Shown here in pieces: positions 5,845 through 22,626 of a stretch of 64,000 nt of DNA. The notes beneath the pieces are model-generated. The model made no database searches. It was not told the origin of the DNA and worked only from the letters and a program-made list of their open reading frames with translations. Origin of the DNA: Escherichia coli (GTDB lineage: Bacteria; Pseudomonadota; Gammaproteobacteria; Enterobacterales; Enterobacteriaceae); the NCBI RefSeq assembly GCF_024223415.1, contig NZ_CP100500.1, one strand, 5' to 3'. Every line of letters starts with the position of its first letter. The stretch's first letter is position 1. The position numbers and the translations under genes are program-made.

Positions 5845-6422
5845 ACGCGGAATTAATGCGCCTTATCAGCAACATCATCAGAACCGGCGTGATTTTCGAC
5901 GTGAACCCGCAGACCTGGGAGGTCCGGGTGCGCAGTGGCGGACTGGAGACAGGCTGGCTTCGCTGGAGCACCGCGCGGGCGGGCGCGTTCAGTGTCTGGG
6001 TGCCGCCAGCCACCGGTGAACAGGTGGCGTTCGTCTGTATCGGTGGTAATCCCGAAACCGCGATAATCATCGGCAGCCTCTGGAGCGATGATATCCCGGC
6101 ACCGGGCAGCACACTGAAGGAAATCATCATGACAGCACCGGACGGTGCGGTATTCCGCTACGATGCAGACGCCGGTGCACTGGAGGTTAAGGGGATTAAA
6201 ACAGCCAGCATTCAGGCCGACACGCGCATCACCCTGGACACGTCGGAGGTGGTGTGTACCCGCAAACTTATCACCGCCACCCTGGAGGTGCAGAACGGCG
6301 GCGAGATGCGCGGCAGCATATCCCACAGCGGCGGCAGCCTGACATCCAACGGTATCACCGTTCATACGCACACCCACGGTGGCGTCAGGACGGGCCCGGG
6401 CACCACGGGAGGCCCGCAATGA
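5841..6422 (+). CDS. Baseplate assembly/spike protein (P2 gpV-like)
   Basis: 193 aa; Gly-rich C-terminus HTHTHGGVRTGPGTTGGPQ; overlaps W start. Confidence 0.65.
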   Translation: MNAELMRLISNIIRTGVIFDVNPQTWEVRVRSGGLETGWLRWSTARAGAFSVWVPPATGEQVAFVCIGGNPETAIIIGSLWSDDIPAPGSTLKEIIMTAPDGAVFRYDADAGALEVKGIKTASIQADTRITLDTSEVVCTRKLITATLEVQNGGEMRGSISHSGGSLTSNGITVHTHTHGGVRTGPGTTGGPQ

Positions 6423-6769
6423 CCGCTGTTTACAGGGGGATGAACCCGCAGGGAACCGGCACGCTGAGCGACAGCGAACACCTGAAAAACAGCGTGCGGG
6501 ATATCCTGACCACACCGCCAGGCAGCCGGGTGATGCGCCGCGAATACGGCAGCCTGTTACCGGACCTCATCGACGAGCCCATGAACGACACCACGCGTTT
6601 ACAGTGCATGAGCGCCACGGTGACTGCGCTGGCGCGCCATGAACCCCGTATAGCACTGCAGAACGTCGATGTGAACTGGCGGGCTGGCGGACGCGCCGTG
6701 GTGACGTTATCCGGCATCATCACCGAAACCATGCAGAACATCACATTCAGTATCACCCTGAGGGAGTAA
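6419..6769 (+). CDS. Baseplate protein (P2 gpW / gp25-like)
   Basis: ATG 6419 overlapping V stop (ATGA); 116 aa. Confidence 0.65.
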   Translation: MTAVYRGMNPQGTGTLSDSEHLKNSVRDILTTPPGSRVMRREYGSLLPDLIDEPMNDTTRLQCMSATVTALARHEPRIALQNVDVNWRAGGRAVVTLSGIITETMQNITFSITLRE

Positions 6770-8228: not shown

Positions 8229-10463
8229 ATGAGCACGAGAAAATTCAGAACCCTTATCACCGACATCGGGCTGGCAAAGCTGGCCGCAACAACGGCGCCT
8301 GGCGGTAGACCTGTACGCCTTACGCACATGGCTGTAGGGGACGGCAATGGAGAGCTTCGTCAGCCGCAGAAAAACCAGACATCGCTTTACAATGAGGTTT
8401 GGCGCCAGTCTGTCAACCGCGTCTTCACCGACCCGGAGAACCCGAACCGCCTCATCGCCGAACTGGTCATTCCTCCTGAAACCGGCGGATTCTGGGTGCG
8501 TGAAATTGGTGTGTTTGATGATACAGGTACAATGATTGCAGTAGGAAATACCGCTGAAAGTTACAAGCCCACCAGAGAGGAAGGTTCAGGGCGGGCGCAG
8601 ATATTCCGTGCAGTAATCACCGTCACCTCCGACGCCGTGGTGGAACTGGTCATGGACACAACAACAATTCTGCCGACCACGGACTACATTGATGAGAAAA
8701 TAGCGGAACACGCACGTTCCCGTAACCACCCTGACGCGACACTGACAGAAAAAGGATTCACCCAACTGAGCAGCGCCACAAACAGCACCTCTGAAACACT
8801 GGCCGCCACACCGAAGGCCGTCAAGGCTGCATATGACCTTGCAGCCGGTAAAGCACCCGCCAGCCACACCCACCCGTGGAATCAGATAACAGGTGTGCCA
8901 TCAGCCTCGCTGACGGCAAAAGGCACCGTACAGCTGAGCAGTGCCACAAACAGTGAGTCAGAGACTGAGGCCGCCACCCCCAAAGCGGTTAAAGCCTTAC
9001 ACGATATGGTGACGAGCAAGTATACAGGACAGGATGCAACCACCGGACGCAAAGGCATCGTACAGCTGAGCAGCGCCACAAACAGCAATTCCGAAACACT
9101 GGCGGCCACACCGAAGGCAGTAAGTGATGCACTGAGCATGGCGTTCGTGAAGCCAACAACATCCCTGGGGGAAACAGACCTGAACACTCTGGGGAGTAAG
9201 GAAGACGCGGGAGATTATTACCAGCAGAGTGACTCAGGTGCGAGAACAGACAGAAACTATCCTGTAGAGAAGGCAGGAGAGTTACGCATCCGTGTTGGTG
9301 CATGGGGATTCTGCCAGCATGAATACACGAGCTGGGATCCGCCACGAAAATTTATCAGGACAGTTACCGGAAACTTTAACGGTAACGGCCCATGGTCAGA
9401 GTGGGTGGAGGTGACAAACACAGATGCAACAACTGGACGCAAAGGCATCGTACAGCTGAGCAGCGATACAAACAGCAATTCCGAAACGCTGGCGGCCACA
9501 CCAAGAGCCGTCAAGGCTGCATATGACCTTGCAGCCGGTAAAGCACCCGCCAGCCACACCCACCCGTGGAATCAGATAACAGGTGTGCCATCAGCCTCGC
9601 TGACGGCAAAAGGCACCGTACAGCTGAGCAGTGCCACAAACAGTGAGTCAGAGACTGAGGCCGCCACCCCCAAAGCGGTTAAAGCCTTACACGATATGGT
9701 GACGAGCAAGTATACAGGACAGGATGCAACCACCGGACGCAAAGGCATCGTACAGCTAAGCAGCGCCACAAACAGCAATTCCGAAACGCTGGCGGCCACA
9801 CCAAAAGCTGTTAAAGCTGCGTATGACCTTGCCAACAGCAAAGCCTCGGCAGCCCACACTCATCGCTGGGCTCAGATCACAGACGCCCCTGTTTTTTCGT
9901 CTGTTGCCCGCGTCATCATGGGTAAACAAAGCATAAAAGATATTCTTGATTACCTTGGTTTAGGAGAAGGCTCGACGCTGCCAGTTGGCGTACCCGTTCC
10001 GTGGCCTTCGTCAAGACCACCTGAGGGGTGGTTACAGTGCAACGGTGCCGCATTCACGCGTACAAAATACCCAAAACTGGCGGTGGCCTACCCTGACCTC
10101 AGGCTACCAGATTTGCGCGGGGAATTTATTCGTGGATGGGATGACCTGCGAATGATTGACAGGGGACGCTTATTGTTATCCACACAGGAAGCAACATATA
10201 TTTGTACCGCCATACAGGCGTACCACGGCGTAGCGGGAGGTGCAGATATTCAGGCAGGGATTTCATTTGCATCACATGATAACGACATCATAAACATAAC
10301 CCCTGATCAACCCAGAACCGGTAACGGCATCCTGTACGGCACAAAACCAGTTGACAGATGGGCAATAGCCAGAGCCGGTAAGCTGGTGAGTAATGAAAAA
10401 GACAGATGGATAGCGATCAGACCGCGCAATATCGCTTTTAATTATATTGTGAGGGCAGTTTAA
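8229..10463 (+). CDS. Tail fibre protein (P2 gpH-like) with internal repeats
   Basis: 744 aa; three copies of motif TGRKGIVQLSSATNSNSETLAATPKAVK typical of phage tail-fibre repeats; followed by tail fibre assembly gene. Confidence 0.8.
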   Translation: MSTRKFRTLITDIGLAKLAATTAPGGRPVRLTHMAVGDGNGELRQPQKNQTSLYNEVWRQSVNRVFTDPENPNRLIAELVIPPETGGFWVREIGVFDDTGTMIAVGNTAESYKPTREEGSGRAQIFRAVITVTSDAVVELVMDTTTILPTTDYIDEKIAEHARSRNHPDATLTEKGFTQLSSATNSTSETLAATPKAVKAAYDLAAGKAPASHTHPWNQITGVPSASLTAKGTVQLSSATNSESETEAATPKAVKALHDMVTSKYTGQDATTGRKGIVQLSSATNSNSETLAATPKAVSDALSMAFVKPTTSLGETDLNTLGSKEDAGDYYQQSDSGARTDRNYPVEKAGELRIRVGAWGFCQHEYTSWDPPRKFIRTVTGNFNGNGPWSEWVEVTNTDATTGRKGIVQLSSDTNSNSETLAATPRAVKAAYDLAAGKAPASHTHPWNQITGVPSASLTAKGTVQLSSATNSESETEAATPKAVKALHDMVTSKYTGQDATTGRKGIVQLSSATNSNSETLAATPKAVKAAYDLANSKASAAHTHRWAQITDAPVFSSVARVIMGKQSIKDILDYLGLGEGSTLPVGVPVPWPSSRPPEGWLQCNGAAFTRTKYPKLAVAYPDLRLPDLRGEFIRGWDDLRMIDRGRLLLSTQEATYICTAIQAYHGVAGGADIQAGISFASHDNDIINITPDQPRTGNGILYGTKPVDRWAIARAGKLVSNEKDRWIAIRPRNIAFNYIVRAV
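8817..9067 (+). repeat. Direct repeat copy 1 inside tail fibre gene (identical to 9507-9757)
   Basis: Lines 8821-9060 are base-for-base identical to 9511-9750; offset 690 bp, in frame. Confidence 0.9.
9507..9757 (+). repeat. Direct repeat copy 2 inside tail fibre gene
   Basis: Same as above; first mismatch at about 9758. Confidence 0.9.
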
Positions 10464-11074
10464 TGAGTAACACTGCAGTTCTGGATGAAAACGGTATCGC
10501 CACTTTCGCAGGCGATATCACTGTATATCACTATGATGAGGAAACCCGGGAATACACCTCATCCTCTGTGGAGTATCTGGCCCTGGGGGTGGGTACCCCG
10601 GCACATTCATGCGCCGATGCCCCGCCAGAGGCAATGCCGGGTTACGTGATTTGCCGGACGTCCACGCTGGACGGGTGGGAGTATGTCCCCGATCATCGTG
10701 GAGAGACGGTATACAGCACAGAGAACGGTAATCCGGTCCAGATTACCCAACCAGGTGACTACCCGGAAGGGACAACGACAAAACAGCCTGCCACACCATG
10801 GGATACCTGGAACGGTGAGGCGTGGGTAACCGATACAGAACGGCAGCAAGCCGAAGAGCTGGAGGTTGCCAGACAGCAACGCAAGGAACGGGTGGATCAG
10901 GCGATGAAGTCCATCGACCTCATCAACCTTAAGTTGCGGGCAGGTCGCAGTCTGACACCAGAAGAAACGGCAAAACTGAATGCCGTGCTGGATTATATCG
11001 ACGAGCTGAACGCACTGGATATCAGCACGGAGCCTGAAATAAGCTGGCCGGAAACACCACCAGAAATGGAATGA
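10463..11074 (+). CDS. Tail fibre assembly protein (Tfa/gpG-like)
   Basis: 203 aa immediately after tail fibre gene (ATG overlaps stop). Confidence 0.65.
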   Translation: MSNTAVLDENGIATFAGDITVYHYDEETREYTSSSVEYLALGVGTPAHSCADAPPEAMPGYVICRTSTLDGWEYVPDHRGETVYSTENGNPVQITQPGDYPEGTTTKQPATPWDTWNGEAWVTDTERQQAEELEVARQQRKERVDQAMKSIDLINLKLRAGRSLTPEETAKLNAVLDYIDELNALDISTEPEISWPETPPEME

Positions 11075-11144: not shown

Positions 11145-11633
11145 TCACATCAGATCATTTACGCCGCTTACTGTGGTATTCCAGACCGAACTTAACTTCC
11201 CTTTCATTCCCGAAAGCATATCAGACACCGGTGACGAGGCCATACTCTCCCGCAAATCCTCATCACAGCGTTCCAGACTGACAGTGAACTCAATTTTTTT
11301 GGCCTTACCGTGGCGGTCAAGTTCGCTTCGCGTTGTGCGGACAGCCGTTATCACATACATGCCGTATATCTGCCCCACACCGTCAATCAGCGGCCATGGG
11401 CGACCAGTGTAAGCCTGCGTCGTTAAAAGGCTGAGGGAAACCTCACCGCCGGTAATTTCGGGATAAAGCACACCGGACAACGTGATCTGGTCGTCACCCG
11501 CCCCGATATACTGCCAGCTGGCCGAACGATTGATGCGTTCATTTTTAACGTGGCGCCAGGTTTTATTATGTTGCAGTTGTTGATGAGGCAGCGTACGCAA
11601 CTCAAAAACAAACATGCCGTAAATCATCATCAT
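11145..11633 (-). CDS. Tail protein U (P2 gpU-like)
   Basis: 162 aa; downstream of tape measure gene on minus strand. Confidence 0.6.
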   Translation of the reverse strand: MMMIYGMFVFELRTLPHQQLQHNKTWRHVKNERINRSASWQYIGAGDDQITLSGVLYPEITGGEVSLSLLTTQAYTGRPWPLIDGVGQIYGMYVITAVRTTRSELDRHGKAKKIEFTVSLERCDEDLRESMASSPVSDMLSGMKGKLSSVWNTTVSGVNDLM

Positions 11634-11644
11634 GCGAGGTACTC

Positions 11645-14600
11645 CTAATCTCTGTCACGGAAACTACCGACTGTCTGGCGGATACGGCGTTCCATTTCCG
11701 CACGGACGGCATCACCCACCATTTTTGCCAGTTCGCGCGGGTTTTGCGTGTGAACATCATGCAGGTGAATATGCAGTTCGCCAGTTAATCCCCATGGTGC
11801 CGCCTCACTCTGGCGCGGTCGGGGCGATGCGGGGGATATGGGCTGGCGCACAGCCTCAACCACCGGACGGGATGTTGCCGCCATCACTGGTGTCATTAGC
11901 GGGGAGAACGTCGGCATGACATCGTGAGTCATAACCGGTTTGATCACCGGCGGAACCACTGGCGTAATATTACCGGACAGTACCGGACGGACGACCGGAG
12001 GAATAACCGGCACATTATTCACGGACACCACCGGCTTCACGACCGGCGACACGTTCGCCGTGGTGGATATCAGCGGCGAAACACTGACAGGCGGTGGCGC
12101 TGGCAGCGGTGGCAACGAAGGCACACTGACCGACGGCACCTGCGGCAGTCTGACAGGTGGCTCACTGACACTACCCGGTAACAGGGAAGCTGCGCGGTTA
12201 AAGCGTTCCTCCTTCCACTCACCACGAACGGCCAGCGCTTCCGGCAGGTTTTTAAAGATAATATCGCCGGGACCAGCGCGTTTTTTCGCCTGTTTCGCCT
12301 CATCCAGCAGACCACCGGTGTTATCGACGATTTTGTTCAGGCGGCGCATAGTGCCGGTATTCTCCCCCGTCAGGGGTGGTTGCCCCCCTTTGGGTTTTTC
12401 GCCGTATTTTTTATCCTCGTCCTTTTTCGGCGGATTAATGACGTTAACATCCGCCAGAAGCATGGCAGCTTTCTCGTTCAGCAACTCCTTCTGTTTTAGT
12501 TCTTCCGCTTTTTTCCGGGCGCGCTCAACCGCTGACGGAATCAGCCCGAGTTTTTCCAGCACCCGGGTTAATGAGTCAATCAGCAGCGTAACCGGACCGG
12601 TCACCAGATTGCTGATAAACTCCCCGACCTTCTGCCCGAACGTCCGCCCGGCTTCCGTGCACTTGTCCAGCTCATCCTTTGTTGTGCTTACCGGCGCGAA
12701 CAAATCCACGAACCACTGCCACACACGCCCGATTGTCTGCCCGACATACTCAAACAATGGTCCCAGTGGTGCCACAGCCTCGCGCAGTGGCGTAAGCCCC
12801 TGCCACAGGCCGGACAAGAACCCGCCCACGACAGCCTTCAGCTGGTCCCAGTGCCGCCAGATAAGCACTGCCGCACCGACCAGTGTCGCCACCACAAGGC
12901 CCACCGGACTTAACAGAAAACCCAGCGCCCCGCCAAGTGCGCCCACCGCACCACTCACCATCCCCCACAGTGCGGGCAGACCTGACAGTCTGAGCGCCAG
13001 TATTCCGATACCGCGCCCCAGTGAAATCAGTGCGCCGCCAGGTGAAGTGAACGCAGCCAGCAGACCACCACGCAGCGCGCCAAGTCCCGCCTGCACACCA
13101 CGAAGCCGCCCCGCAACTACGCCCAGCAGTGCAGCAAACCGTCCGGCACCGGAGGTGATACCGACAAACAGCACGCGCCAGCCACCGATACCGCCCAGCG
13201 GACCACCGAGTACGCCGCGCAGCTGCGTCAGTAACGGCAGCGCACGACCGAGGCCGGATGTGCCGGTCAGCAGGGCAAACCCAAGACGCAGTTTTGCCAG
13301 CGGCCCCATCAACACACCAGTGGCAAGTGACAGCGCCCCCATGGCCGCAACCGCAGCCAGCAGTACACCACCGGCAATCAGCAGTTGTTTTGTCAGTTCA
13401 GGGTGCGCCTGAGCCAGCGCGGTGACTTTCGCAATAACCCGGGTGAACGACTGCGTGACAGAACGCAGCGGCCCGTCAACGAGGTCAGCGATACGGATAC
13501 GCAGTCCTTCCCATGCGCTGTTCAGTGATTTCAGGTCACCGTCCAGGTTATCAACCATAACACGGGCAGTCTGATTAAGTTCCCCGGTGGCCAGTTCAAT
13601 CTCCTGCGTAAGACGGGGAAGATTATTTTCCCCCGCCGCAGTGACAAGATTCATCAGGGAAACATAGGACTCCTGCCCGGCAATAGCCCTGAAAAAGGAG
13701 ACCTGCGCGGCATTACCGTATTTTCGGGTGGCCTGGTACAGCTCATTCAGGATATTTTCCATCCGGCGCATGTTCCCGTAAGCATCCTGCGTCTCCACGC
13801 CAAGCTCTTTCAGTGCCATTGCAGCGGCCTTCGGCGGATCAACCAGACGTGACAGACTGGCACGCAGCGCCGTACCTGCATCACTTCCACGGATCCCCAC
13901 ACTGCCAAGGACACCCGTCATGGCTGCCGCCTGTTCAAGGGACAGGCCAAGTGAAGCTGCAACCGGCCCCGTGTACTTCATGGTTTCACCCAGCGAACGG
14001 AGATCCGTATTGGTTCGTGTGAAGGTGGCGGCCAGCGTGTCACCCACGCGATCCATCTGGTCAGCGGACAGACCAAACTGTGTGAGGATATTCGAACTGA
14101 TATCGGCAGTCTGTCCCAGGTCCATCCCTGCAGCCATTGCCAGATCAAGCACGCCGGGTAGCGCCGCCTGTATGGCCTGTGGTGTGAAGCTGGCCATGGC
14201 AAGGAACGCCTGACCGCTGGCAGCATCACCGGCGGTAAACTGCGTTTCAGAGCCCAGCTTAATGGCCTGTTCGCGCAGCGCCTTAAACTGCGGACTGTTT
14301 TTGTCAATACGGGTCAGCGCCTGGACGCGCGACATCTCCTTACCAAAACTGACCGCCGGTTGCAGGAAACGTCCGGCCGCATAGCCGCCTGCCGCCGCCG
14401 TACCAACCGCCGTAAGTCCGACCGTTTTAAGTTTTCCCGCCGTCTCCTGAGCACGGGAATATTGCTGGCGTGCCTGCGTGACACGTGCCAGCGCCTGCCG
14501 TTCGCGTTCCAGCTGGTCGTTGTATTGCTGTGTTCGCCGTATGGCCTGTTGAATGGTGTTGTCACTGCCGGAAAGCGCAATACCGTGGCGCCGCAGCTCA

Positions 14601-14992
14601 CCACCCAGTTCGCGCATTCGCTGAACTTCACGCGCACGGACCTCATTGAGACGCTCAAGTTTGAGGCTCAAATCGTTCATCAGCTTTTTCTGTTTGTCAG
14701 ACAGCACGGTTCCGGCGCGCTGAATTTGCTGAAGTGCGCTTAACTGGCGTTGCGCCCTGACAATGCCGTTTCCGGCCTTGTTTGCAGCCTCGCGGGCGCG
14801 ATCAAATGAACGGGCGTGGCGTTCCAGGTTTTTGATCGCACCCTGCGTTCTCTGTATGGAGTCGCCAAGCTGGCCCATCATGCGACGGGCGTTTTCGGTG
14901 GGACGGGTCAGCCTGTCAACAGCGCTGAAGGCGACCCGTATATCAAGCGTTTTCATGCTCTGCGTTCCCGCTGCGAAGGGCCGCCCGCTCAC
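11645..14992 (-). CDS. Tail tape measure protein (P2 gpT-like), with Pro/Val-rich C-terminal repeats
   Basis: 1115-aa ORF, long helical Ala/Gly-rich regions; alternative ATG start at 14956. Confidence 0.8.
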   Translation of the reverse strand: MSGRPFAAGTQSMKTLDIRVAFSAVDRLTRPTENARRMMGQLGDSIQRTQGAIKNLERHARSFDRAREAANKAGNGIVRAQRQLSALQQIQRAGTVLSDKQKKLMNDLSLKLERLNEVRAREVQRMRELGGELRRHGIALSGSDNTIQQAIRRTQQYNDQLERERQALARVTQARQQYSRAQETAGKLKTVGLTAVGTAAAGGYAAGRFLQPAVSFGKEMSRVQALTRIDKNSPQFKALREQAIKLGSETQFTAGDAASGQAFLAMASFTPQAIQAALPGVLDLAMAAGMDLGQTADISSNILTQFGLSADQMDRVGDTLAATFTRTNTDLRSLGETMKYTGPVAASLGLSLEQAAAMTGVLGSVGIRGSDAGTALRASLSRLVDPPKAAAMALKELGVETQDAYGNMRRMENILNELYQATRKYGNAAQVSFFRAIAGQESYVSLMNLVTAAGENNLPRLTQEIELATGELNQTARVMVDNLDGDLKSLNSAWEGLRIRIADLVDGPLRSVTQSFTRVIAKVTALAQAHPELTKQLLIAGGVLLAAVAAMGALSLATGVLMGPLAKLRLGFALLTGTSGLGRALPLLTQLRGVLGGPLGGIGGWRVLFVGITSGAGRFAALLGVVAGRLRGVQAGLGALRGGLLAAFTSPGGALISLGRGIGILALRLSGLPALWGMVSGAVGALGGALGFLLSPVGLVVATLVGAAVLIWRHWDQLKAVVGGFLSGLWQGLTPLREAVAPLGPLFEYVGQTIGRVWQWFVDLFAPVSTTKDELDKCTEAGRTFGQKVGEFISNLVTGPVTLLIDSLTRVLEKLGLIPSAVERARKKAEELKQKELLNEKAAMLLADVNVINPPKKDEDKKYGEKPKGGQPPLTGENTGTMRRLNKIVDNTGGLLDEAKQAKKRAGPGDIIFKNLPEALAVRGEWKEERFNRAASLLPGSVSEPPVRLPQVPSVSVPSLPPLPAPPPVSVSPLISTTANVSPVVKPVVSVNNVPVIPPVVRPVLSGNITPVVPPVIKPVMTHDVMPTFSPLMTPVMAATSRPVVEAVRQPISPASPRPRQSEAAPWGLTGELHIHLHDVHTQNPRELAKMVGDAVRAEMERRIRQTVGSFRDRD

Positions 14993-15469
14993 GCCAGGCG
15001 ACCACCTCGCCGGGATCCATCAGGAAGATTTCAGCGGGAGACCAGTTGAAAATAACGGCGATATCCGCCACAAAGTCTTCAATGTGCTCAAAGGGCACGA
15101 CGGTTATCAGCCTGCCGTCGCCGCCCCGCTCTTCCCGCCAGAGTCCTGACCGGCCAAAAAATTAACCGCCACCCCGCACAGCTGAATAAAATCAGCGGAC
15201 CCCATGCGCTTAAGCAGAACCTCGTCCAGTCGCGGCGAAGTGACGCGCGGGAGTAACTCAAACATCGCGTCCGTTTTCATGTTCAGCACGTCAAGCAGTG
15301 ACAGCCCGCGCAGTGAACCGGCCTGCTGTACAGCAGGCGTGATTTCCACATACGTGATTTTTTTGTTACCGAGCACAAGGGGCGTTTTCAGCGTCACGCC
15401 GCGCTCACTGGTCACGTCCGCCGCATCAGCACCGTCAGTAACAGGGGCAACAACCGGATTTTCTTTCAT
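14943..15469 (-). CDS. Tail assembly chaperone E+E' (predicted -1 frameshift product)
   Basis: After slip at T TTT TTG the -1 frame stays open for about 65 codons to TGA near 14943, overlapping tape measure start. Confidence 0.4.
15107..15469 (-). CDS. Tail assembly chaperone E (P2 gpE-like)
   Basis: 120-aa ORF between tube and tape measure genes. Confidence 0.6.
   Translation of the reverse strand: MKENPVVAPVTDGADAADVTSERGVTLKTPLVLGNKKITYVEITPAVQQAGSLRGLSLLDVLNMKTDAMFELLPRVTSPRLDEVLLKRMGSADFIQLCGVAVNFLAGQDSGGKSGAATAG
15155..15161 (-). other. Slippery heptamer T TTT TTG (programmed -1 frameshift site)
   Basis: Plus strand caaaaaa = minus ttttttg, in phase X XXY YYZ with codons N-F-L of chaperone E. 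Confidence 0.5.
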
Positions 15470-15519
15470 GCATAAAACCTCAAATCAGGGGGCGACGCCG
15501 CGCGCCGCCGTGGGAAACA

Positions 15520-16038
15520 TTAACCACCAAGACCAATCGCCGAGCGCACGCGGTCCGGGAAGACGTTTTTGCCGTCCTTGCGTTCGATGTGGTTCAGTAA
15601 ATCAATCTCCAGCACCGGACGGTCGTTAATGCTGAGTTTGTAGTAGGTACTCCTGACCGCATAGGTGTGAGACGTGACCTCACCCTGTTTTGCCTCCCCC
15701 GTATCAATTTCCGTCACGCGGCCGCGAAGCTCAATTTCATACAGGTCGCTCTGCTCTTCATCGTTGTAGTACTCACCGACAAAGCGCAGCAGCGTACCGT
15801 CGATCGTGCCGCCGTACTTAAGGAACAGTTCGCGGGTCGGCCCGCCCATGGTGAAACTCGCATCCAGCGCGCCGTCATCCAGACCAAGGTCGATATTCAC
15901 CGCGCCGGCCATACCACCACCGCGATAGGCTTCCGTTTTACGGGTCAGTTTGGGGGGCGTGAAGCCGGTCACCCTGCCAATCTGGTTCACCCCGTCAGTA
16001 AACAGCGTGAACACCCTGAGATTTTTTGGTACGGCCAT
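15520..16038 (-). CDS. Major tail tube protein (P2 gpFII-like)
   Basis: 172 aa, immediately downstream of sheath gene (TAATG overlap). Confidence 0.8.
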   Translation of the reverse strand: MAVPKNLRVFTLFTDGVNQIGRVTGFTPPKLTRKTEAYRGGGMAGAVNIDLGLDDGALDASFTMGGPTRELFLKYGGTIDGTLLRFVGEYYNDEEQSDLYEIELRGRVTEIDTGEAKQGEVTSHTYAVRSTYYKLSINDRPVLEIDLLNHIERKDGKNVFPDRVRSAIGLGG

Positions 16039-17321
16039 TAAGCACCTCCAAGCGTCGCAAATGCAGGACCAAAGAATTCATCAGTAAACGTCTGGTAAAG
16101 TTCCATATCCTCAAGCGGCGGAACGGGCGTGTACTTGTAGCGGATACGCACGCGTCCCTGACGAAGTTCCGTGGTGCTGTTATCCACCACGTCATACCAG
16201 CACTCCGCACCAATGAGACGTCCTGACGTAACCAGCGCATCCAGTTTTGCGCGAATTGCGCTTAACACGTCTTTCACATTAGCAGGGGTCAGCGGGGCAT
16301 CAATCGTTTCAAACTGCGCTTCCGCAATGGAATCAGCCAGCACCTGAGCGGTTCGCGTGTACACCTCAAAGATATACGCCTTCGTTTCCGGCGTACGGTT
16401 GCCCCAGAAGCGGAAACCGTTACGGCAAATGATGGTAGTGATTTCCTTGTTGTTGAGATTGTTGGCATCGCTGTCTTCGGACTGAAGGGACCAGAACACC
16501 GGGCTGGAAATACCCAGCACATTTGTTACCGGCACGTTGGACAGCGATTTATGCCAGCCCTGTTCGTGGTCAATACGTGCACGTAAACCGCAGGCGTACG
16601 CCGCAGCCGGGAAGACCTCATTAGCGCCGGATTTCGGGTTATAGGCGATGAAGTCAGGCCAGAGCAGCATAAGTTCGCGCTCGTTAAATCTGGCGCGGTA
16701 GCTGATTGCATCAGCGGGCTTCTTGCAGTTGTGACAGCCCGCGTAGACAAATGCGCGAAGTTTTTCTGCAATTACACACAGGGATTTTGTGACAGCTTCA
16801 GTATCCAGTCCGGGAGCTGCGATGATGCGCGGACGGTAACCGATGGCATCATCCTGTTCAGCTATCAGAAGTGCATACATACCGGTATAATTACCGTCGC
16901 CATCCGTGCCACCAATGACATACTGGTCCTGCGTTTTGTGTGGGTATACAGGATGTGCATCTTCAGACTCATCAATACCAAAAAATGCCCTGTCTTCAGG
17001 ATCCAGATGACCGAATGATGTAACTCCTGTATCCGGGGCGCCCTGAGAACTGGTATCAGGAACGCGCACCACAATCACCTTCGTGCTCACCTGGTCGGCG
17101 ACAGCCTTAAGCGATTTGTAAAGCGTCCCCTTTGTGCCGGCCTTACCCAGCACATCACTGACGCGGGTCAGCAGTGTGGGTTTGTTCAGCGGGAACAGAG
17201 TTTCATCCGCGTCATCTGCCGTAGCCACAATACCAATAACACTGGAATCCACATCATTAATGGCGGTGGCAAGGCCGGTACTTTCCCTTACGCGCGCACC
17301 ATGAAAGCGTGTTTCACTCAT
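16038..17321 (-). CDS. Tail sheath protein (P2 gpFI-like)
   Basis: 427 aa from ATG at 17321 (MSETRFHGARV...); track ORF extends further upstream without support. Confidence 0.8.
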   Translation of the reverse strand: MSETRFHGARVRESTGLATAINDVDSSVIGIVATADDADETLFPLNKPTLLTRVSDVLGKAGTKGTLYKSLKAVADQVSTKVIVVRVPDTSSQGAPDTGVTSFGHLDPEDRAFFGIDESEDAHPVYPHKTQDQYVIGGTDGDGNYTGMYALLIAEQDDAIGYRPRIIAAPGLDTEAVTKSLCVIAEKLRAFVYAGCHNCKKPADAISYRARFNERELMLLWPDFIAYNPKSGANEVFPAAAYACGLRARIDHEQGWHKSLSNVPVTNVLGISSPVFWSLQSEDSDANNLNNKEITTIICRNGFRFWGNRTPETKAYIFEVYTRTAQVLADSIAEAQFETIDAPLTPANVKDVLSAIRAKLDALVTSGRLIGAECWYDVVDNSTTELRQGRVRIRYKYTPVPPLEDMELYQTFTDEFFGPAFATLGGA

Positions 17322-17433
17322 ATGTTTCACCCTTGTCTGGCTGGTTGATTTTGCGTAATCATTACCCACACACGCGGTAATCTCACCCCTTTGATGTTGT
17401 CTCCTGACAGCGACAACAAAACAGCCATTCAAC

Positions 17434-17451
17434 GCCGCTGCGGTGCATGAA
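17434..17451 (-). promoter_or_regulatory. TGT-N12-ACA dyad, candidate Ogr-dependent late promoter element for the sheath operon
   Basis: tgtCTCCTGACAGCGaca, centre about 55 nt upstream of a transcript start that would give a roughly 65-nt leader to the sheath ATG. Confidence 0.35.
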
Positions 17452-17482
17452 ACCATTACAGAACGCACCAGGAGAGAACACC

Positions 17483-18574
17483 ATGAAAGAGCTGTCAGTT
17501 ACCGTTCCGTCACCGGATATCGACATCACCATCAACAACAACACACTGGCAAACCTCACAGAGCGACTCATGACGCTGACCCTGACGGATAACCGGGCCT
17601 TTGAGGCAGACCGCGTCACCCTCACCCTTGACGATACGGACGGGCAGTTACAGTTGCCACCACGTGGCGCACGCCTGAGAGTGATGATTGGCTGGCGAGG
17701 AGAATCACTGGTTAACAAGGGCACCTACGTCGTTGATGAGGTTGCGTGGGAAGGACCTCCAGATAAACTGATCATCACCGCCAGCAGCGCAGATTTTCGG
17801 GAAGAGTTCAACGTGAGGCGGGAGGTATCCTGGCACGACGTGACCGTAAAACAGGTTGTGTCAGCCATCGCTCACCGCTACGGCCTGAAGACACAGATAA
17901 GCGAAATCCTCATGGATATCGAAATTGACCACGCTGACCAGACCGAAGAGAGCGATATATCCTTCCTGACCCGCATGGCTGAAATGCTGGGTGCGATTGC
18001 CACCGTAAAAAACGGCAGCCTGTTATTCATTCTGCCGGGTGGCGGAACCGGGCCGGACGGAAGAGCCCTGCCTTCGTTCGCCATTACCCGCAGCAGCGGC
18101 GACAGTCACCGCTTTCGCATTGCTGACCGTGATGCGTATACGGGGGTCCGGGCGCACTGGCTCGATCTGAAGTTCGGGCAAAAGAAAAAAGTGAACGTGA
18201 AGCGACGCAGGGAAGCCGGGAAACAGAAACAGGAGAAGAGCAGCAGCCGGGAGGGTGATTACATGGAAGGCGCGGAAGGGAACGTCTACGTTCTGCGCAG
18301 GACTTACCAGAATGAAGAAACCGCACGACGTGCAGCTGCGGCAAAGTGGCAGGAGTTACAGCGGGGAGCAGCGGCATTCTCCATCACTCTGGCACGGGGT
18401 CGTGCCGACCTGTACCCCGAAATGCACGGCAGGGTAACAGGTTTTAAAAGCGAGGTGGACAATCAGGACTGGATTATTGCCAGGGTGGAGCACATCATAG
18501 ATGAAAGCGGCTTCACCACACAACTGGAGCTGGAAGCGAAAATCCCCGAATGGATAGCAGATTCAGGCGGATAA
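17483..18574 (+). CDS. Tail protein D (P2 gpD-like late control protein)
   Basis: ATG 17483 with GGAGAG upstream; 363 aa. Confidence 0.7.
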   Translation: MKELSVTVPSPDIDITINNNTLANLTERLMTLTLTDNRAFEADRVTLTLDDTDGQLQLPPRGARLRVMIGWRGESLVNKGTYVVDEVAWEGPPDKLIITASSADFREEFNVRREVSWHDVTVKQVVSAIAHRYGLKTQISEILMDIEIDHADQTEESDISFLTRMAEMLGAIATVKNGSLLFILPGGGTGPDGRALPSFAITRSSGDSHRFRIADRDAYTGVRAHWLDLKFGQKKKVNVKRRREAGKQKQEKSSSREGDYMEGAEGNVYVLRRTYQNEETARRAAAAKWQELQRGAAAFSITLARGRADLYPEMHGRVTGFKSEVDNQDWIIARVEHIIDESGFTTQLELEAKIPEWIADSGG

Positions 18575-18617
18575 AATTAAAATGAGCCATCTCCACTCAG
18601 CCAGATAAGGAGAAGCC

Positions 18618-18869
18618 ATGTTCCGTTGTCCCCTATGCGGTGCATCCGCACGTATCCGCACCAGTCGCAATGAAAATGATTCAGGCACAGTTCGCCTGAA
18701 GTACTACCAGTGCAATAACCTCGAATGCGGGATCGGCTTTACCACACTGGAGGGTTTTAACAAATTCACATCAAAACGCGCCCCGTCGCCGCAGGGTACA
18801 GAGCGGATACCGTGGGAAGATTTTCCGGGATCTCACAGGGGGAATACTCAGATTAATCTTGATATTTAA
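18618..18869 (+). CDS. ogr: Ogr/Delta-family zinc-finger late-gene activator
   Basis: 83 aa; CPLC...C(x4)C arrangement MFRCPLCGASARIRTSR...YYQCNNLECG; last gene before prophage junction. Confidence 0.75.
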   Translation: MFRCPLCGASARIRTSRNENDSGTVRLKYYQCNNLECGIGFTTLEGFNKFTSKRAPSPQGTERIPWEDFPGSHRGNTQINLDI

Positions 18870-18980
18870 GAACAATAATCAGGTTGAGAGGACATCATAA
18901 GGCAAGTAGATTAACGGCAGATACTTTCCCGCAACCACGGGCAAGTATTTAATTATCCATGATGAAATATGACCTAAATT

Positions 18981-19014
18981 GTTTTTTGCCCGCCGGAAAG
19001 CGGGCATTTTTTTA
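18981..19014 (+). terminator. Intrinsic terminator, candidate prophage attR core
   Basis: gcccgc cggaaa gcgggc hairpin flanked by T runs on both sides; same element recurs 7 more times downstream. Confidence 0.6.
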
Positions 19015-19227
19015 TTCTTTTGTGGTTATGGGGTCATCAGGAACCACGTGCAGATTATATTTTTGTTTTTTTGGCGTTCCTCCGGCAGCAACGAGTTCAT
19101 CAATAAGACACTGACACGCCTGAACATCCCGGGCATGTCTTAGTTTCACCTTTATTGATTTAACCTTATCCTCACCGGAGGAGAAATGCAGTTCAATCTC
19201 AATATCGTTTCTTCGGAACAATCTCAT
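19012..19227 (-). CDS. Hypothetical small protein (71 aa) in module M
   Basis: ATG at 19227 preceded by AGGGGG; intact only in this copy, truncated or degenerate in the other two M copies. Confidence 0.25.
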   Translation of the reverse strand: MRLFRRNDIEIELHFSSGEDKVKSIKVKLRHARDVQACQCLIDELVAAGGTPKKQKYNLHVVPDDPITTKE

Positions 19228-19398
19228 ACGCCCCCTGAATATATCAGAAATACTAGTATCGAAAAATGAGAAAACAGTTAGACAGGAGAAACATATTAAC
19301 ACAAATCATTTATACCTATAGATGAAATTATAATTTCATTCATGAATATGATAGATAACTATATTGTGAACAAAATGAAAAATGGCTAAATTAAAAAT

Positions 19399-19478
19399 GG
19401 GCATGGAGGAATGCCCGGTTATCAATATAATGTGACGTAGATCATTGTTTTGCCCGCCGGAGAGCGGGCATTTTTTTT
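19399..19478 (+). ncRNA. Candidate small RNA S1
   Basis: Promoter-like TTGTGA(19364)-N17-TAAATT(19387), about 80-nt unit with internal hairpin gggcatggaggaatgccc, ends in intrinsic terminator. Confidence 0.35.
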
Positions 19479-19678
19479 GCGCCTGCCATCGAGGCGCCTT
19501 CCCTGGCGCACACAAAGCAGCCCTGATTTTCCATGAAAACTTCAGGGTTGAGCTGCGGGCACAAAGTGAGTAGATTAGCTACGGGTACCTCCCCCTGACA
19601 ACAGGAAGGGTGTCCATTATCCATGATATACAAACGAAAAGTCTTGTTTTTTGCCCGCCGAAGCGCGGGCATTTTTTT
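19479..19678 (+). ncRNA. Candidate structured RNA U1 (about 200 nt)
   Basis: Bounded by two terminators; internal hairpins gcgcct..aggcgc, ccctga..tcaggg, ccttcc..ggaagg; 4 copies in window. Confidence 0.3.
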
Positions 19679-19723
19679 ATGCATCAGACAAGATACAGCC
19701 CACCCCAACTGACACCTGAAATA

Positions 19724-19752
19724 TTGCCGCAACAAAAAGAAACAGTTAAATT
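19724..19752 (+). promoter_or_regulatory. Sigma70-like promoter for hok1 transcript
   Basis: TTGCCG-N17-TAAATT, about 145 nt upstream of hok1 ATG. Confidence 0.4.
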
Positions 19753-19804
19753 ACGCGCGGGTGCCTTTCGGCTGATGGCCGGAGGGAAAACCTGAAGGCC
19801 GGAT

Positions 19805-20038
19805 GTGGAAAGGCCCCGGAAAACATTTCTGTTTAACCGAGGCCCTAACCGCATTACCTTGACAAGTGAAAGGTTAGCGCCTCTCCGGAAAAGGAGCAAG
19901 TGCTATGTCGCAAAAATCGCTTACGGCCATCACGTTCTGCGTGACGGCAATCCTCATCATCTGGATATTGCACGGTTCGCTGTGCGAAATACGGATGAGC
20001 TTCTGGGGAGCGGAGTTTGCGGCGTTCTTACAATGTAA
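19805..20038 (+). CDS. mok-like overlapping reading frame
   Basis: 77-codon frame overlapping hok1 in a different frame, as in hok/mok loci. Confidence 0.3.
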   Translation: MERPRKTFLFNRGPNRITLTSERLAPLRKRSKCYVAKIAYGHHVLRDGNPHHLDIARFAVRNTDELLGSGVCGVLTM

Positions 20039-20045
20039 GAAGTAA
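19905..20045 (+). CDS. Hok/Gef-family type I toxin (46 aa)
   Basis: MSQKSLTAITFCVTAILIIWILHGSLCEIRMSFWGAEFAAFLQCKK: TM helix plus SLCEI..AAFL.CK signature; AAGGAG 8 nt upstream. Confidence 0.6.
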   Translation: MSQKSLTAITFCVTAILIIWILHGSLCEIRMSFWGAEFAAFLQCKK

Positions 20046-20133
20046 GGAAACCGCGACGGGGGAGCAATCCCCCGTCAATCGGTTGCCAGGGTAAGGTCGA
20101 TAAGGCACCCTATCTCACAGACATGAACAAACA

Positions 20134-20167
20134 AACCCGCAGCATAAAAACTGCGGGTTTTCTTTTT
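20134..20167 (+). terminator. Intrinsic terminator after hok1
   Basis: cccgcag cataaaaa ctgcggg followed by ttttcttttt. Confidence 0.5.
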
Positions 20168-20571
20168 GGTGTCCTCACCGACTTGAAACAGTGATCAGAC
20201 TATAAGACAAAGCCCGCAATGTTGCGGGCTTACTCTACCTCTCGAAAATGTGGTCACTGCGTGGACATACGCTGATACAAATCCTTTATATCAATAAATT
20301 AAATCTTTGTTTTTTTCATCAACAATGATTTAACCTTATCCTCACCGGAGGAGAAATGCAGTTCAATCTCAATATCGTTTCTGTGGAACAGCCTCATAAG
20401 ACAACCTCCTGAATTCATCAGAAACACAGTCAACTGAAAACCAGAAAGCAGACAAACAGTGGACACACATTAATACAAATCATTTATACCTATAGATGAA
20501 ATTGCAGTTTCATCTATAACATGACAGGTAACAATATTGTGAAAAAACTCAAAACTCGTTAGATTAAAGAC

Positions 20572-20651
20572 GGACAGAGCAATGCTACTTTATCAATAAC
20601 ATGTAACCTGTACTTCCTTATTTTGCCCGCCGAAGCACGGGCATTTTTTTT
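20572..20651 (+). ncRNA. Candidate small RNA S2
   Basis: TTGTGA(20537)-N17-TAGATT(20560), terminator at 20625-20651; central region differs from S1. Confidence 0.3.
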
Positions 20652-20849
20652 GCGCCTGCCATCGAGGCGCCTTCCCTGGCGCACACAAAGCAGCCCTGAT
20701 TTTCCATGAAAACTTCAGGGTTGAGCCAAAAGCACAAAGACAGTAGATTAACCACGGGTGCCTTCCACCTGACAACAGGAAGGGTGTCCAGTATCAATGA
20801 CAGACAACTCACATTGCTGTTTTGCCCGCCGGAAAGCGGGCATTTTTTT
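20652..20849 (+). ncRNA. Candidate structured RNA U2
   Basis: Copy of U unit ending in terminator 20821-20849. Confidence 0.3.
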
Positions 20850-21219
20850 ATTCTTTTGTGGTTATTGGGTCATCAGGAACAACATGCAGATTATGCTTTG
20901 ATTTTTTTGGTGTTATTACAGCAGCAACGAGTTTATTAATAAGACACTGACATGCCTGAACATCCCTGACATATCATAATATCACTTTATTTTTTTAGCT
21001 TGTCCTTTCTGGAGCAGAAATATCTCAACATCGTTTCTGTGGAACAACCTCATTTGCCCTTGAATGTATCATAAATATCAGCATCGGAAAACCAACAGCA
21101 ATACAGAAGAAACATGTTAATGCAAATCACTTATACCTATAGATGAAATTACAGTTTTGTTCATAAATATGATAAGTAACTATATTGTGAATAAAATGAA
21201 AACTAGCTAAATTAAACGT

Positions 21220-21300
21220 GGGCATGGTGGAATGCCTCGTAATCAATAATACATGATCCGTACTTCCTTGTTTTGCCCGCCGGAAAGCGGGCATTTTTTT
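21220..21300 (+). ncRNA. Candidate small RNA S3
   Basis: TTGTGA(21185)-N17-TAAATT(21208), hairpin gggcatggtggaatgcc, terminator to 21300. Confidence 0.3.
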
Positions 21301-21497
21301 GGCGGTTACCATCGCCTCACCTTCCTGGTTCACATGAAGCAACCCTGATTTTCCATGAAAACTTCAGGGTTGAGACAAAAGCACAAAGACAGTAGATTAA
21401 CCACGGGTACCTTCCACCTGACAACAGGAAGGCTGTCCAGTATCAATGACAGACAACTCACATTGCTGTTTTGCCCGCCGGAAAGCGGGCTTTTTTT
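21301..21497 (+). ncRNA. Candidate structured RNA U3
   Basis: Copy of U unit, terminator 21469-21497. Confidence 0.3.
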
Positions 21498-21698
21498 GGC
21501 AGTTATCATAGCCGCACCTTCCTGGCACATATGAAGCAACCCTGATTTTCCATGAAAACTTCAGGGTTGAGACAAAAGCACAAAAACAGTAGATTAACCA
21601 CGGGTGCCTGCCACCTGACAACAGGAAGGGTGTCCATTATCCATGATATACAAACGAAAAGTCTTGTCTTTTGCCCGCCAAAGCGCGGGCATTTTTTT
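21498..21698 (+). ncRNA. Candidate structured RNA U4 (hok-associated subtype)
   Basis: Copy of U unit with the same 3' end as U1, terminator 21671-21698. Confidence 0.3.
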
Positions 21699-21909
21699 AT
21701 GCATCAGACAAGATACAGCCCACCCCAACTGACACCTGAAATATTGCCGCAACAAAAAGAAACGGGTGCCTTTCGGCTGATGGCCGGAGGGAAAACCTGA
21801 AGGCCGGATGTGGAAAGGCCCCGGAAAACATCTGTGTTTAACCGAGGCCTGACCCTTCCTACCGTGACAAGTGGAAGGTTAGCGCCTCTTTGTAAAAGGA
21901 GCAAGCGCT

Positions 21910-22050
21910 ATACCGCAAAAAACGATTATTGTTGGCATTTTATGCCTGACAATAACCCTGGTCATCTGGATGGTCCACGATTCGTTATGTGAATTCAGCT
22001 TTGATATCTGGGGAGCGCGTTTTGCGGCGTTCTTGCAGTGTAAACCGTAA
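21910..22050 (+). pseudogene. Hok-family toxin remnant: start codon ATA, promoter -10 deleted
   Basis: Frame encodes PQKTIIVGILCLTITLVIWMVHDSLCEFSFDIWGARFAAFLQCKP after AAGGAG, but first codon is ATA and an in-frame TAG lies 10 codons upstream. Confidence 0.55.
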
Positions 22051-22200
22051 GAAACCGCAGCGGGGGAGAAATTCCCCGCTATCCGGTTGTTGGGGTGGGC
22101 CGATATGGCGCCCTTTCCCTGTAGAGACAAAACAAAAAACCAGATTTGCCCGCCATTGAGAGGGCTTTTTTGTCACCCTCACCAGTGAGGGCATCATCAT

Positions 22201-22428
22201 TCAGAGGCGCGTAAGCCACCCGGCGTTAACATCCTGCCTGTCAACCCTGGCCGCAGAGTCTGAACGGCAGGTACCGGAAGGAGTACCAAAAACATCCCTG
22301 ACAAGTTCCGCCACCTTCCCGATATCATCAGGTGTCACATTCCTCACCTCGGCAGTGATCCGTGGCGTACCATCATCGTTAACAAGAGTGGCTTTAAAGC
22401 TGGTGCGAAGGGAAAACAACATCAACAT
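22201..22428 (-). CDS. Hypothetical protein (75 aa)
   Basis: ORF only; no recognisable motif. Confidence 0.2.
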   Translation of the reverse strand: MLMLFSLRTSFKATLVNDDGTPRITAEVRNVTPDDIGKVAELVRDVFGTPSGTCRSDSAARVDRQDVNAGWLTRL

Positions 22429-22626
22429 CCCCTCCCTTTGGTTCGTTGCACTGACGGCACGACACCATCAGGAAAAAGAAAAGCCCACAACGTCAGTATT
22501 GTGGACTTTTTTCTTCAAAGATGGACATTATCTGGACACATGAAAATAAAATCCATTTATTTTCATATAGTTAAGTACCATGCAAAAGCGCCCGCAGGCG
22601 CTTTTTAGATTCAGAAAAATTAGGTA

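Follow-up and report, generated by a model that had tools for sequence, protein, structure and literature searches.

Results

The prophage and the gene E region

The analysed window, a stretch of 64,000 nt from the Escherichia coli contig NZ_CP100500.1, comprises part of the chromosome in which a P2-family (P88/Xuanwuvirus-like) prophage resides. The contractile-tail module of this prophage has sheath, gpU, gpD and Ogr in addition to the following genes, which are found in the P2-like order FII (tube), E, T (tape measure):

15520–16038, minus strand: gene FII, tail tube protein, directly upstream of E (Pfam PF04985 Phage_tube, 1.8e-44)
15107–15469, minus strand: gene E, tail assembly chaperone (open reading frame and translation; 120 aa, 12.5 kDa)
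11645–14956, minus strand: gene T, tape measure protein, 1103 aa (Pfam PF10145, 1.4e-51)

Gene E extends from ATG 15469 to TGA 15109–15107. Gene T begins with an ATG at 14956–14954 and aligns end to end with T of phage P88. Copies of this sequence with an identity of at least 99% were recovered from 24 complete E. coli genomes, and the matching E. coli record lists intact CDSs for head, baseplate, fibre, sheath, tube, U, D and ogr. A GC hairpin between FII and E, located where a partial terminator (tI) is annotated in phage 186, folds no better than shuffles (z = -0.34) and has no U-tract.

The product of gene E was assigned to PHROG 103 (‘tail protein’, 4.7e-31), shares 36% identity over 87 residues with gpE of P2 (BLASTP, E = 7e-14) and retains all invariant columns of the family. 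Pfam PF10109 (Phage_TAC_7) was not matched by it even at E <= 10, no Pfam or NCBIfam threshold was reached for this N-terminal part, and NCBIfam gave no match for either E or the E+E' fusion described below; the sole Pfam match of E at E <= 10, to DUF6573, was regarded as chance. PF10109 was matched by E of P2 (2.6e-12) and by 14 of 18 reconstructed fusions of the family, and the miss is ascribed to the divergence of this subfamily and to model sensitivity; homology was established pairwise and by PHROG.

The slip site

15155–15161, minus strand: slippery heptamer T TTT TTG, in phase with gene E (aaT TTT TTG = N103 F104 L105)
15162–15164, minus strand: TAA stop of the -1 frame, directly 5' of the heptamer

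The heptamer forms codons 103–105 of gene E and is followed by 15 sense codons and the stop of the gene, and the initial annotation had its position, phase (N-F-L) and distance from the chaperone stop right. As the -1 frame is closed by the TAA at 15164–15162, the heptamer is the first position at which a -1 shift can yield an extension. Both frames overlap for 55 nt, the permissive shift window, and TTTTTTG is the sole XXXYYYZ motif within it.

As a bare heptamer TTTTTTG is not rare (19 copies in the window, 12.5 ± 3.7 expected); only this copy of the 19 has, together, at least 100 open codons upstream, a stop in the zero frame within 15 codons and a -1 frame that stays open for 70. Among codon-shuffled versions of E, 7% had an in-phase XXXYYYZ motif of any kind among their last 19 codons and 0.1% had TTTTTTG there; the remaining doubt about a chance origin is removed by the conservation in relatives reported below. 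Three other in-phase motifs in the window were set aside: the plus-strand GGGCCCG/CCCGGGC at 6392–6401 belongs to an ordinary junction of overlapping genes (CDSs annotated at 5841–6422 and 6419–6769), and the CDSs annotated around the minus-strand AAACCCG at 3822–3828 lie on the other strand.

The E' extension and the predicted composite product

14943–15155, minus strand: E' extension, 70 codons of the -1 frame and TGA (14945–14943) (translation, Pfam, PHROG)
14943–15469, minus strand: composite E+E' coding region, predicted fusion of 175 aa and 19.1 kDa

With G15155 read a second time, the -1 frame comprises 70 sense codons (GRSGLWREERGGDGRLITVVPFEHIEDF...NAEHENA) before its TGA. An open -1 frame of about 65 codons had been proposed initially; it is indeed open, and re-translation revealed no early stop near the slip site, but its length had been underestimated. 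Its end lies 14 nt inside gene T, and thus just within the tape measure start as anticipated. The expected similarity to E' proteins was also recovered: the extension matched Pfam PF06528 (Phage_P2_GpE; E = 4e-12, 45.8 bits where the cutoff is 23) and PHROG 1756 (1e-32), is 49% identical to E' of P2 over 41 residues (E = 7e-16), and lacks none of the family's invariant residues.

In tblastn searches the fusion matched 396 phage records, typically in two pieces jointly covering most of the query, which is consistent with two reading frames, and PF06528 was matched by all 18 reconstructed fusions (18/18). The AlphaFold model of the fusion (mean pLDDT 86.9, pTM 0.76) displayed confident structure across the junction. 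A profile search of PDB sequences gave no match (best E = 0.59) and a Foldseek search of the PDB with the confident model none at E <= 0.001, so that no experimental structure was found for the family.

RefSeq annotates gene E as ‘hypothetical protein’ (WP_000662443.1) and E' separately as WP_001115715.1, a 51-aa ‘GpE family phage tail protein’ starting with GTG 15098. Most phage records of this lineage likewise present the extension as a stand-alone ORF of inconsistent length next to an upstream gene named ‘hypothetical’ or ‘phage tail protein’, and a collection of about 15 billion proteins contained no entry for the predicted 175-aa E+E' product.

Conservation of the heptamer and selection on the overlap

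An in-phase slippery heptamer was found in the E/E' overlap of all 20 diverse phage loci compared (TTTTTTG in 15/20, including P2 and 186) and of all 80 loci retrieved from IMG/VR, 71 of them unique, with TTTTTTG in 48/71 unique loci. Variants in relatives were C CCT TTC and A AAT TTT (eight unique loci each), G GGA AAG in Mannheimia PHL101, and T TTT TTC/A/T. Within Peduoviridae, T TTT TTG, which is not listed as efficient in E. coli, alternates with the efficient-class heptamers C CCT TTC, T TTT TTC and G GGA AAG. In the nucleotide alignment, with a mean identity of 42%, the heptamer is the sole well-conserved block.

The substitution pattern was analysed in the following stretch:

15107–15154, minus strand: dual-coding overlap, from the heptamer to the stop of E

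Compared with P88, seven of 11 substitutions fall on third positions of the -1 frame and one on third positions of the zero frame, and amino-acid identity amounts to 12/16 in the -1 frame versus 8/15 in the zero frame; this pattern recurs in most of the other relatives. The prevalence of substitutions at -1-frame third positions, in a stretch that precedes every candidate start codon, argues that this frame is translated upstream of the separate GTG start given by RefSeq, and the pattern indicates purifying selection on the -1 frame in the overlap, over 16 codons upstream of GTG 15098 and inside gene E.

Stimulatory elements and shift efficiency

No stable hairpin or pseudoknot 5–9 nt downstream of the heptamer, as in stimulated bacterial -1 signals of the dnaX/IS3 type, was indicated, the 95 nt after the heptamer folding at -32.8 kcal/mol versus -31.0 ± 3.2 in shuffles (z = -0.56). 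A terminator-like hairpin in E' (15071–15055) is situated downstream of the heptamer at a distance of more than 80 nt, coincides with the codons of the conserved ADIAVIF motif and was taken as coincidental. Upstream, where such signals have an SD-like sequence at 6–17 nt, one candidate was found:

15168–15176, minus strand: SD-like CGGGGTGGC, 6 nt upstream of the heptamer, candidate weak stimulator

Its duplex with the anti-SD (-6.6 kcal/mol) ranks in the top 1% of 9-mers in gene E. Twelve of 20 loci have a comparable element, the closest relatives P88 and Chuche lack one, and the elements are confounded by conserved K/E-V codons, so a role as weak stimulator is only suggestive. The heptamer seems to act mostly alone, and the upstream element may add a little. 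In the list of most efficient motifs in E. coli given by Sharma et al. (2014; PMC4066793), U_UU.U_UU.G does not appear. Since the motif falls outside the efficient list and no convincing stimulator was found, shift efficiency is probably low, which we infer would fit the ratio of a chaperone.

Discussion

A probable programmed frameshift and its alternatives

We consider the site, with a probability of roughly 0.9 and on sequence evidence, to be a P2 E/E+E'-type case of programmed -1 ribosomal frameshifting, situated in the tail assembly chaperone gene of a P2-family prophage, which supports the reading put forward in the initial annotation. Most ribosomes would pass T TTT TTG in frame and terminate after 15 further codons, releasing the 120-aa chaperone E, while a minority, having decoded TTT (Phe) and TTG (Leu), would slip back by one base, the P-site and A-site tRNAs re-pairing on TTT TTT, and would then translate another 70 codons of the -1 frame (GGC CGG...) to produce the 175-aa E+E'. 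By analogy with E/E+E' of P2 and G/GT of lambda, the shared N-terminal part may bind the tape measure protein and the E' domain may recruit the tail tube subunit; tail assembly would require a fixed, low ratio of long to short form, and neither protein would be expected in the virion. The tryptic junction peptide MGSADFIQLCGVAVNFLGR is predicted for E+E' made by tandem slippage after Leu decoding, MGSADFIQLCGVAVNFFGR for slippage in the P-site only or for an extra U in the mRNA, and MGSADFIQLCGVAVNFLAGQDSGGK would mark unshifted E.

An extra U could be provided by transcriptional slippage, with RNA polymerase stuttering on the seven T and adding one U to some mRNAs, so that the junction would read ...NFFGR rather than ...NFLGR. 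The homopolymeric run is present, and one added nucleotide leads to the same downstream frame; however, seven T are short for efficient slippage by the E. coli RNA polymerase. Moreover, relatives recode with C CCT TTC, A AAT TTT and G GGA AAG, tandem-slippage motifs that contain no long homopolymer and fit re-pairing of tandem tRNAs, by which a ribosomal mechanism is favoured, and the phase and 3' G of the motif are conserved although polymerase slippage requires neither. The event in P2 is also described as translational (PMC3091744, citing Christie, 2002). Taken together, a transcriptional origin is improbable. It is still less probable that E' is an independent 51-aa protein initiated at GTG 15098 without any recoding, as the annotation by PGAP and several phage records implies. 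Records of at least 999 contigs include exactly this 51-aa sequence, and a weak SD-like AGG (best anti-SD duplex -5.7 kcal/mol, spacing 11 nt) precedes the GTG; yet purifying selection acts on the -1 frame for the 16 codons upstream of this start, that frame opens exactly at the conserved heptamer, and residues 106–125, encoded upstream of the GTG, belong to confident structure in the AlphaFold model. Furthermore, the called starts differ between records (cluster members of 29–55 aa, some flagged as partial), and in P2, phiT5282H, 3LV2017, phi52237, RS-AB1, PHL101 and MAR no annotator called a separate ORF at all.

The flagging of the adjoining tape measure gene as a pseudogene by RefSeq could suggest that heptamer and open -1 frame are inherited remnants of a defective prophage from which no product is made. 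This we regard as scarcely credible, for the window contains an intact tape measure ORF that is alignable with that of P88 over its entire length, E and E' have lost none of the invariant residues, and the intact structural CDSs of the matching record as well as the near-identical copies in 24 complete genomes speak against decay.

Comparison with known systems

The programmed ribosomal frameshift preferred here has its model in P2, for which a -1 shift at TTTTTTG resulting in E (91 aa) and E+E' (142 aa) is described in PMC3091744 (citing Christie et al., 2002, J Bacteriol 184:6522); the two proteins are said there to have a common N-terminus, to be both required for tail assembly and to be both absent from virions (citing Christie, 2002), and the downstream hairpin is given as absent in P2 and in KS5/KS14/KL3 (citing Christie, 2002; Xu, 2004). 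Re-analysis of the P2 sequence confirmed the same heptamer in the same phase. The P2 geometry claimed initially therefore holds: T TTT TTG is identical and equally phased (x-F-L), E is placed between FII and T, E and E' are homologous, the E' stop lies a few bases inside T, and a downstream hairpin is missing in both. In contrast to P2, E has 120 instead of 91 aa and begins with an additional, disordered stretch of about 20 residues, and its N-terminal part remains below the PF10109 threshold; the heptamer is separated from the E stop by 15 rather than six codons; the extension has 70 rather than 57 codons, the approximately 14 additional linker residues being modelled as a beta-hairpin; and the block FI-FII-E-T-U has, as in P88, the opposite orientation to H/G and D/ogr. 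The prophage is a P88/Xuanwuvirus-type relative and not a close copy of P2.

The nearest sequenced phage relatives are P88/Xuanwuvirus gp47-gp46 (NC_026014), with 73% nucleotide identity across the region and with gene order, inversion, heptamer and 70-codon extension in common. P88 differs in an additional, overlapping A AAT TTT, in a -1 frame that opens 30 nt earlier and in lacking the SD-like element, and its record lists two separate ‘tail protein’ CDSs with no frameshift annotated. The same heptamer and geometry were met in phage 186 (orf51/orf52, gene H), the Burkholderia phages KS5 (gp16/gp17) and FLC5 (ORF20/ORF19), which differ in their short extensions of 56–57 codons and are 32–34% identical to the fusion of the window. 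A joined CDS is annotated in GenBank for KS5 and FLC5, and the record of phage 186 contains the wording ‘probably produced by a translational frameshift’.

The comparison with lambda G/GT that had been drawn initially applies to logic and position: ribosomes shift by -1 close to the end of a chaperone gene that precedes the tape measure gene, by which a minor long product arises. The heptamer of lambda G/GT is G GGA AAG, which among the homologues compared was present only in Mannheimia PHL101, and the tail of lambda is non-contractile. Lambda-type chaperone families were not among the Pfam matches, the fusion matching PF06528 only, and no sequence homology to gpG or gpT was found, so that the resemblance, judged by these searches, is functional and geometric only. 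For lambda, assembly depends critically on a G:GT ratio of about 30:1, and the virion contains neither protein (PMC5009743).

A further -1 tandem slippage on an X XXY YYZ heptamer is that of E. coli dnaX, to which the possible upstream SD-like stimulator would be analogous. There, A AAA AAG is combined with a strong downstream hairpin and gives rise to a shorter product, whereas the present site has no significant downstream structure and a longer product.

Annotation and significance

The locus is an unannotated instance of the P2 E/E+E' frameshift, real but ordinary, and its correct annotation would be a joined CDS with ribosomal slippage at 15155. Orphan E' ORFs have also been taken as ‘small proteins’ in metagenomic surveys (PMC12856327). 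The biological gain is small, as the frameshift of P2 E/E+E' became known in 2002 and is documented to be conserved among P2-like phages. It is conceivable, though rather unlikely, that choice and context of the heptamer are tuned lineage by lineage in Peduoviridae and thereby set the ratio of E to E+E'. If the SD-like element truly stimulates, the shift rate of this prophage would differ from that of P88, and such a difference, if true, could be tied to the longer tape measure protein (1103 aa versus 935 aa in P88).

Tail gene organisation

Chromosomes of E. coli match the window at 100%, and its coordinates correspond 1:1 to NZ_CM144243.1, in which the P2-family prophage adjoins serS. The closest phages belong to the P88/Xuanwuvirus group, with about 73% nucleotide identity. 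The following genes surround the tail assembly chaperone gene E:

18618-18869, plus strand: Ogr (Pfam PF04606)
17447-18574, plus strand: gpD (Pfam PF05954)
16038-17321, minus strand: sheath (Pfam PF04984)
15520-16038, minus strand: tube, FII (Pfam PF04985)
15469-15107, minus strand: gene E, 120-codon ORF from ATG at 15469 to TGA at 15109-15107
11645-14956, minus strand: tape measure, T (Pfam PF10145)
11145-11633, minus strand: gpU (Pfam PF06995)

Whereas P2 possesses a collinear FETUD operon, the FI-FII-E-T-U block of the prophage (11145-17321, minus strand) is inverted and runs opposite to the fibre genes H/G (8229-11074, plus strand) and to D/ogr (17447-18869, plus strand). The same inverted layout is found in P88 (Xuanwuvirus) and is therefore a lineage trait rather than an anomaly; with this layout, promoters in the FI-D interval (17321-17447) should be divergent.

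RefSeq marks T as a pseudogene ('incomplete; missing C-terminus') with an annotated span of 12761-14956 only. However, the window contains an intact ORF of 1103 aa (11645-14956, minus strand), and its alignment with the 935-aa P88 T covers both proteins from end to end; the RefSeq flag is probably artefactual. The additional length consists of two insertions, one Gly/Ala/Leu-rich and hydrophobic (residues ~505-600), the other a Pro/Val-rich repeat (~940-1020); from a T of this size a longer tail would be expected. An in-frame GTG at 14992 (minus strand), preceded by the SD-like CGAGGTGGT, was observed 36 nt 5' of the annotated ATG, with an anti-SD duplex of -8.0 kcal/mol vs -4.3 at the ATG, which is the start used by homologues and PGAP; either of the two codons may initiate T.

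Slip site and predicted products

Codons 103-105 of E read AAT TTT TTG (N-F-L) in the minus-strand translation, which places TTTTTTG (15161-15155) in X XXY YYZ phase, and the stop of E follows after 15 more sense codons. From G15155 the -1 frame runs through 70 sense codons (GRSGLWREERGGDGRLITVVPFEHIEDFVADIAVIFNWSPAEIFLMDPGEVVAWRERAALRSGNAEHENA) to a TGA at 14945-14943, and with the T start ATG at 14956-14954 this E' extension reaches 14 nt into T. The initial annotation had proposed a programmed -1 frameshift here, and re-translation reproduced its coordinates, its description of the site and a -1 frame without stops near it, while the extension, put at about 65 codons, had been counted too short. 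A -1-frame TAA (15164-15162) abuts the heptamer directly on its 5' side, which makes the heptamer the earliest point for a productive -1 shift in a permissive window of 55 nt in all. The computed masses are 12.5 kDa for E and 19.1 kDa for the fusion E+E'.

Similarity of the extension to E' proteins, also anticipated, was borne out by a match to Pfam PF06528 'Phage P2 GpE' (45.8 bits, cutoff 23) and 49% identity to P2 E' over 41 residues; PHROG 1756 was matched as well. The N-terminal part is related to P2 gpE (36% identity, E = 7e-14) and matches PHROG 103; it stayed below every Pfam and NCBIfam threshold. PF10109 (Phage_TAC_7) is matched by P2 gpE and by 14/18 reconstructed fusions of the family, and in the alignment of these 18 the window protein retains all invariant residues, N-terminal as well as C-terminal to the junction. 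P88-like, Reipivirus, Novemvirus and Reginaelenavirus proteins share a linker that exceeds the one of P2 by about 14 residues. Within the E' coding sequence a terminator-like hairpin (15055-15071, minus strand; GTGGCGGATATCGCCGT followed by TATTTTC) coincides exactly with ADIAVIF, the most conserved E' motif, and is probably a coding coincidence.

Conservation of the heptamer

A bare TTTTTTG is common rather than rare in the window (19 copies vs 12.5 +/- 3.7 expected). Only the copy at 15161-15155, however, is preceded by at least 100 open codons and followed, no more than 15 codons on, by a zero-frame stop, with the -1 frame open over a long distance. Shuffling the codons of E placed an in-phase XXXYYYZ of any kind among the final 19 codons in 7% of trials; for TTTTTTG the figure was 0.1%. 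Eleven of the 19 copies are grouped at 18900-22600 between ogr and serS, where a Hok/Gef toxin gene (19905-20045, plus strand) and about 2.5 kb without annotated gene are located; this interval presumably represents the end of the prophage or its attachment region.

The decisive evidence against chance is the comparison with relatives. A tblastn search with the fusion matched 396 phage records, typically in two pieces, which is consistent with two reading frames. For 19 diverse loci and the window, the zero-frame ORF, the -1 ORF and all in-phase XXXYYYZ within their overlap were located; each of the 20 possesses at least one such heptamer, T TTT TTG in 15 (among them P2, 186, KS5 and FLC5), and re-analysis of the P2 locus with T TTT TTG yielded the published 91-aa and 142-aa products. 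The remaining phage loci display T TTT TTT, T TTT TTC, A AAT TTT, C CCT TTC or G GGA AAG. An IMG/VR scan gave 80 loci (71 unique); a slippery heptamer lies in phase within the overlap of every one and is TTTTTTG in 48 of the unique ones. In the nucleotide alignment (42% mean column identity) the T-run with its G is the only nearly invariant block. The substitutes occupy the position of T TTT TTG: Klebsiella Reipivirus-like phages use C CCT TTC and P884B11-like phages A AAT TTT (8 unique loci each), and Mannheimia PHL101 has G GGA AAG; T TTT TTA/C/T are also among the replacements. Relatives with alternative heptamers are:

L020, 894-900
L007, 831-837
L015, 888-894
L023-L036 and L053-L060 (IMG/VR loci)

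Alternative explanations

E' is annotated as its own CDS in RefSeq and most phage records, here as the 51-aa WP_001115715.1 ('GpE family phage tail protein'; 14943-15098, minus strand) from GTG 15098. Against a separate gene stands the 48-nt stretch from the heptamer to the E stop, upstream of this GTG, in which the window differs from 21 related sequences mainly at third positions of the -1 frame; compared with P88, 7/11 substitutions are of this kind vs only 1 on a zero-frame third position, and the -1 frame shares 12/16 amino acids with P88 vs 8/15 for the zero frame. This pattern argues for translation of the -1 frame upstream of GTG 15098. Moreover, stand-alone start calls are inconsistent (members of one 90% cluster range from 29 to 55 aa, some flagged partial), and several records, P2 included, call no separate E' ORF. 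A confident AlphaFold model of the fusion (mean pLDDT 86.9, pTM 0.76) places residues 91-107, which span the junction, in a helix and predicts a structured hairpin in the part of the linker encoded ahead of GTG 15098; it is supporting evidence only, as its input alignment consisted of our own reconstructed fusions. The exact 175-aa E+E' is absent among about 15 billion catalogued proteins, and each half is present on at least 999 contigs.

The T7 homopolymer would also suit transcriptional slippage, with RNA polymerase adding a U, but this is very improbable: lineages that no longer have the homopolymer (C CCT TTC, A AAT TTT, G GGA AAG) retain two triplets on which tandem tRNAs can re-pair, heptamer phase and 3' G are conserved, and the P2 event is described as translational in PMC3091744, citing Christie 2002. 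The family evidence thus favours ribosomal slippage. The models would differ in the junction residue: Leu would mean tandem slippage, and Phe either slippage in the P site only or a U added to the mRNA.

Possible stimulators, expected efficiency and inferred function

Folding of the 95 nt 3' of the heptamer is no more stable than that of shuffled sequences (z = -0.56), in agreement with P2, KS5, KS14 and KL3, for which PMC3091744 reports that hairpins are absent. An SD-like CGGGGTGGC (15176-15168, minus strand) lies 6 nt 5' of the heptamer, with an anti-SD pairing of -6.6 kcal/mol, which ranks among the best 1% within the gene. Comparable elements, present in 12/20 loci, coincide with conserved K/E-V codons, and stronger versions were found in P2 (TAAGGTGGT), SEN8, RS-AB1 and KS5; among the 20 loci, the closest relatives P88 and Chuche possess no SD-like element upstream of the heptamer. 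CGGGGTGGC could be a dnaX-like stimulator or merely reflect the K/E-V codons. The most efficient E. coli motifs listed in PMC4066793 include H_HH.U_UU.Y but not U_UU.U_UU.G, and hence a low shift rate is expected. By analogy with lambda, for which PMC5009743 gives a G:GT ratio of ~30:1, this would suit the need for a long product in minor amounts.

At the level of sequence, the signal, both frames, homology, site conservation and selection on the -1 frame are shown here. By analogy with P2 and lambda, the N-terminal domain common to E and E+E' would coat the tape measure protein and the E' domain would recruit tube protein, both proteins acting as assembly chaperones absent from virions. The site belongs to a well-characterised kind but lacks annotation as such, which makes it an annotation gap, not a discovery. 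The consequence of this gap is illustrated by a 2025 ocean metagenomic small-protein survey, in which GpE-family small proteins are presented as noteworthy (PMC12856327).
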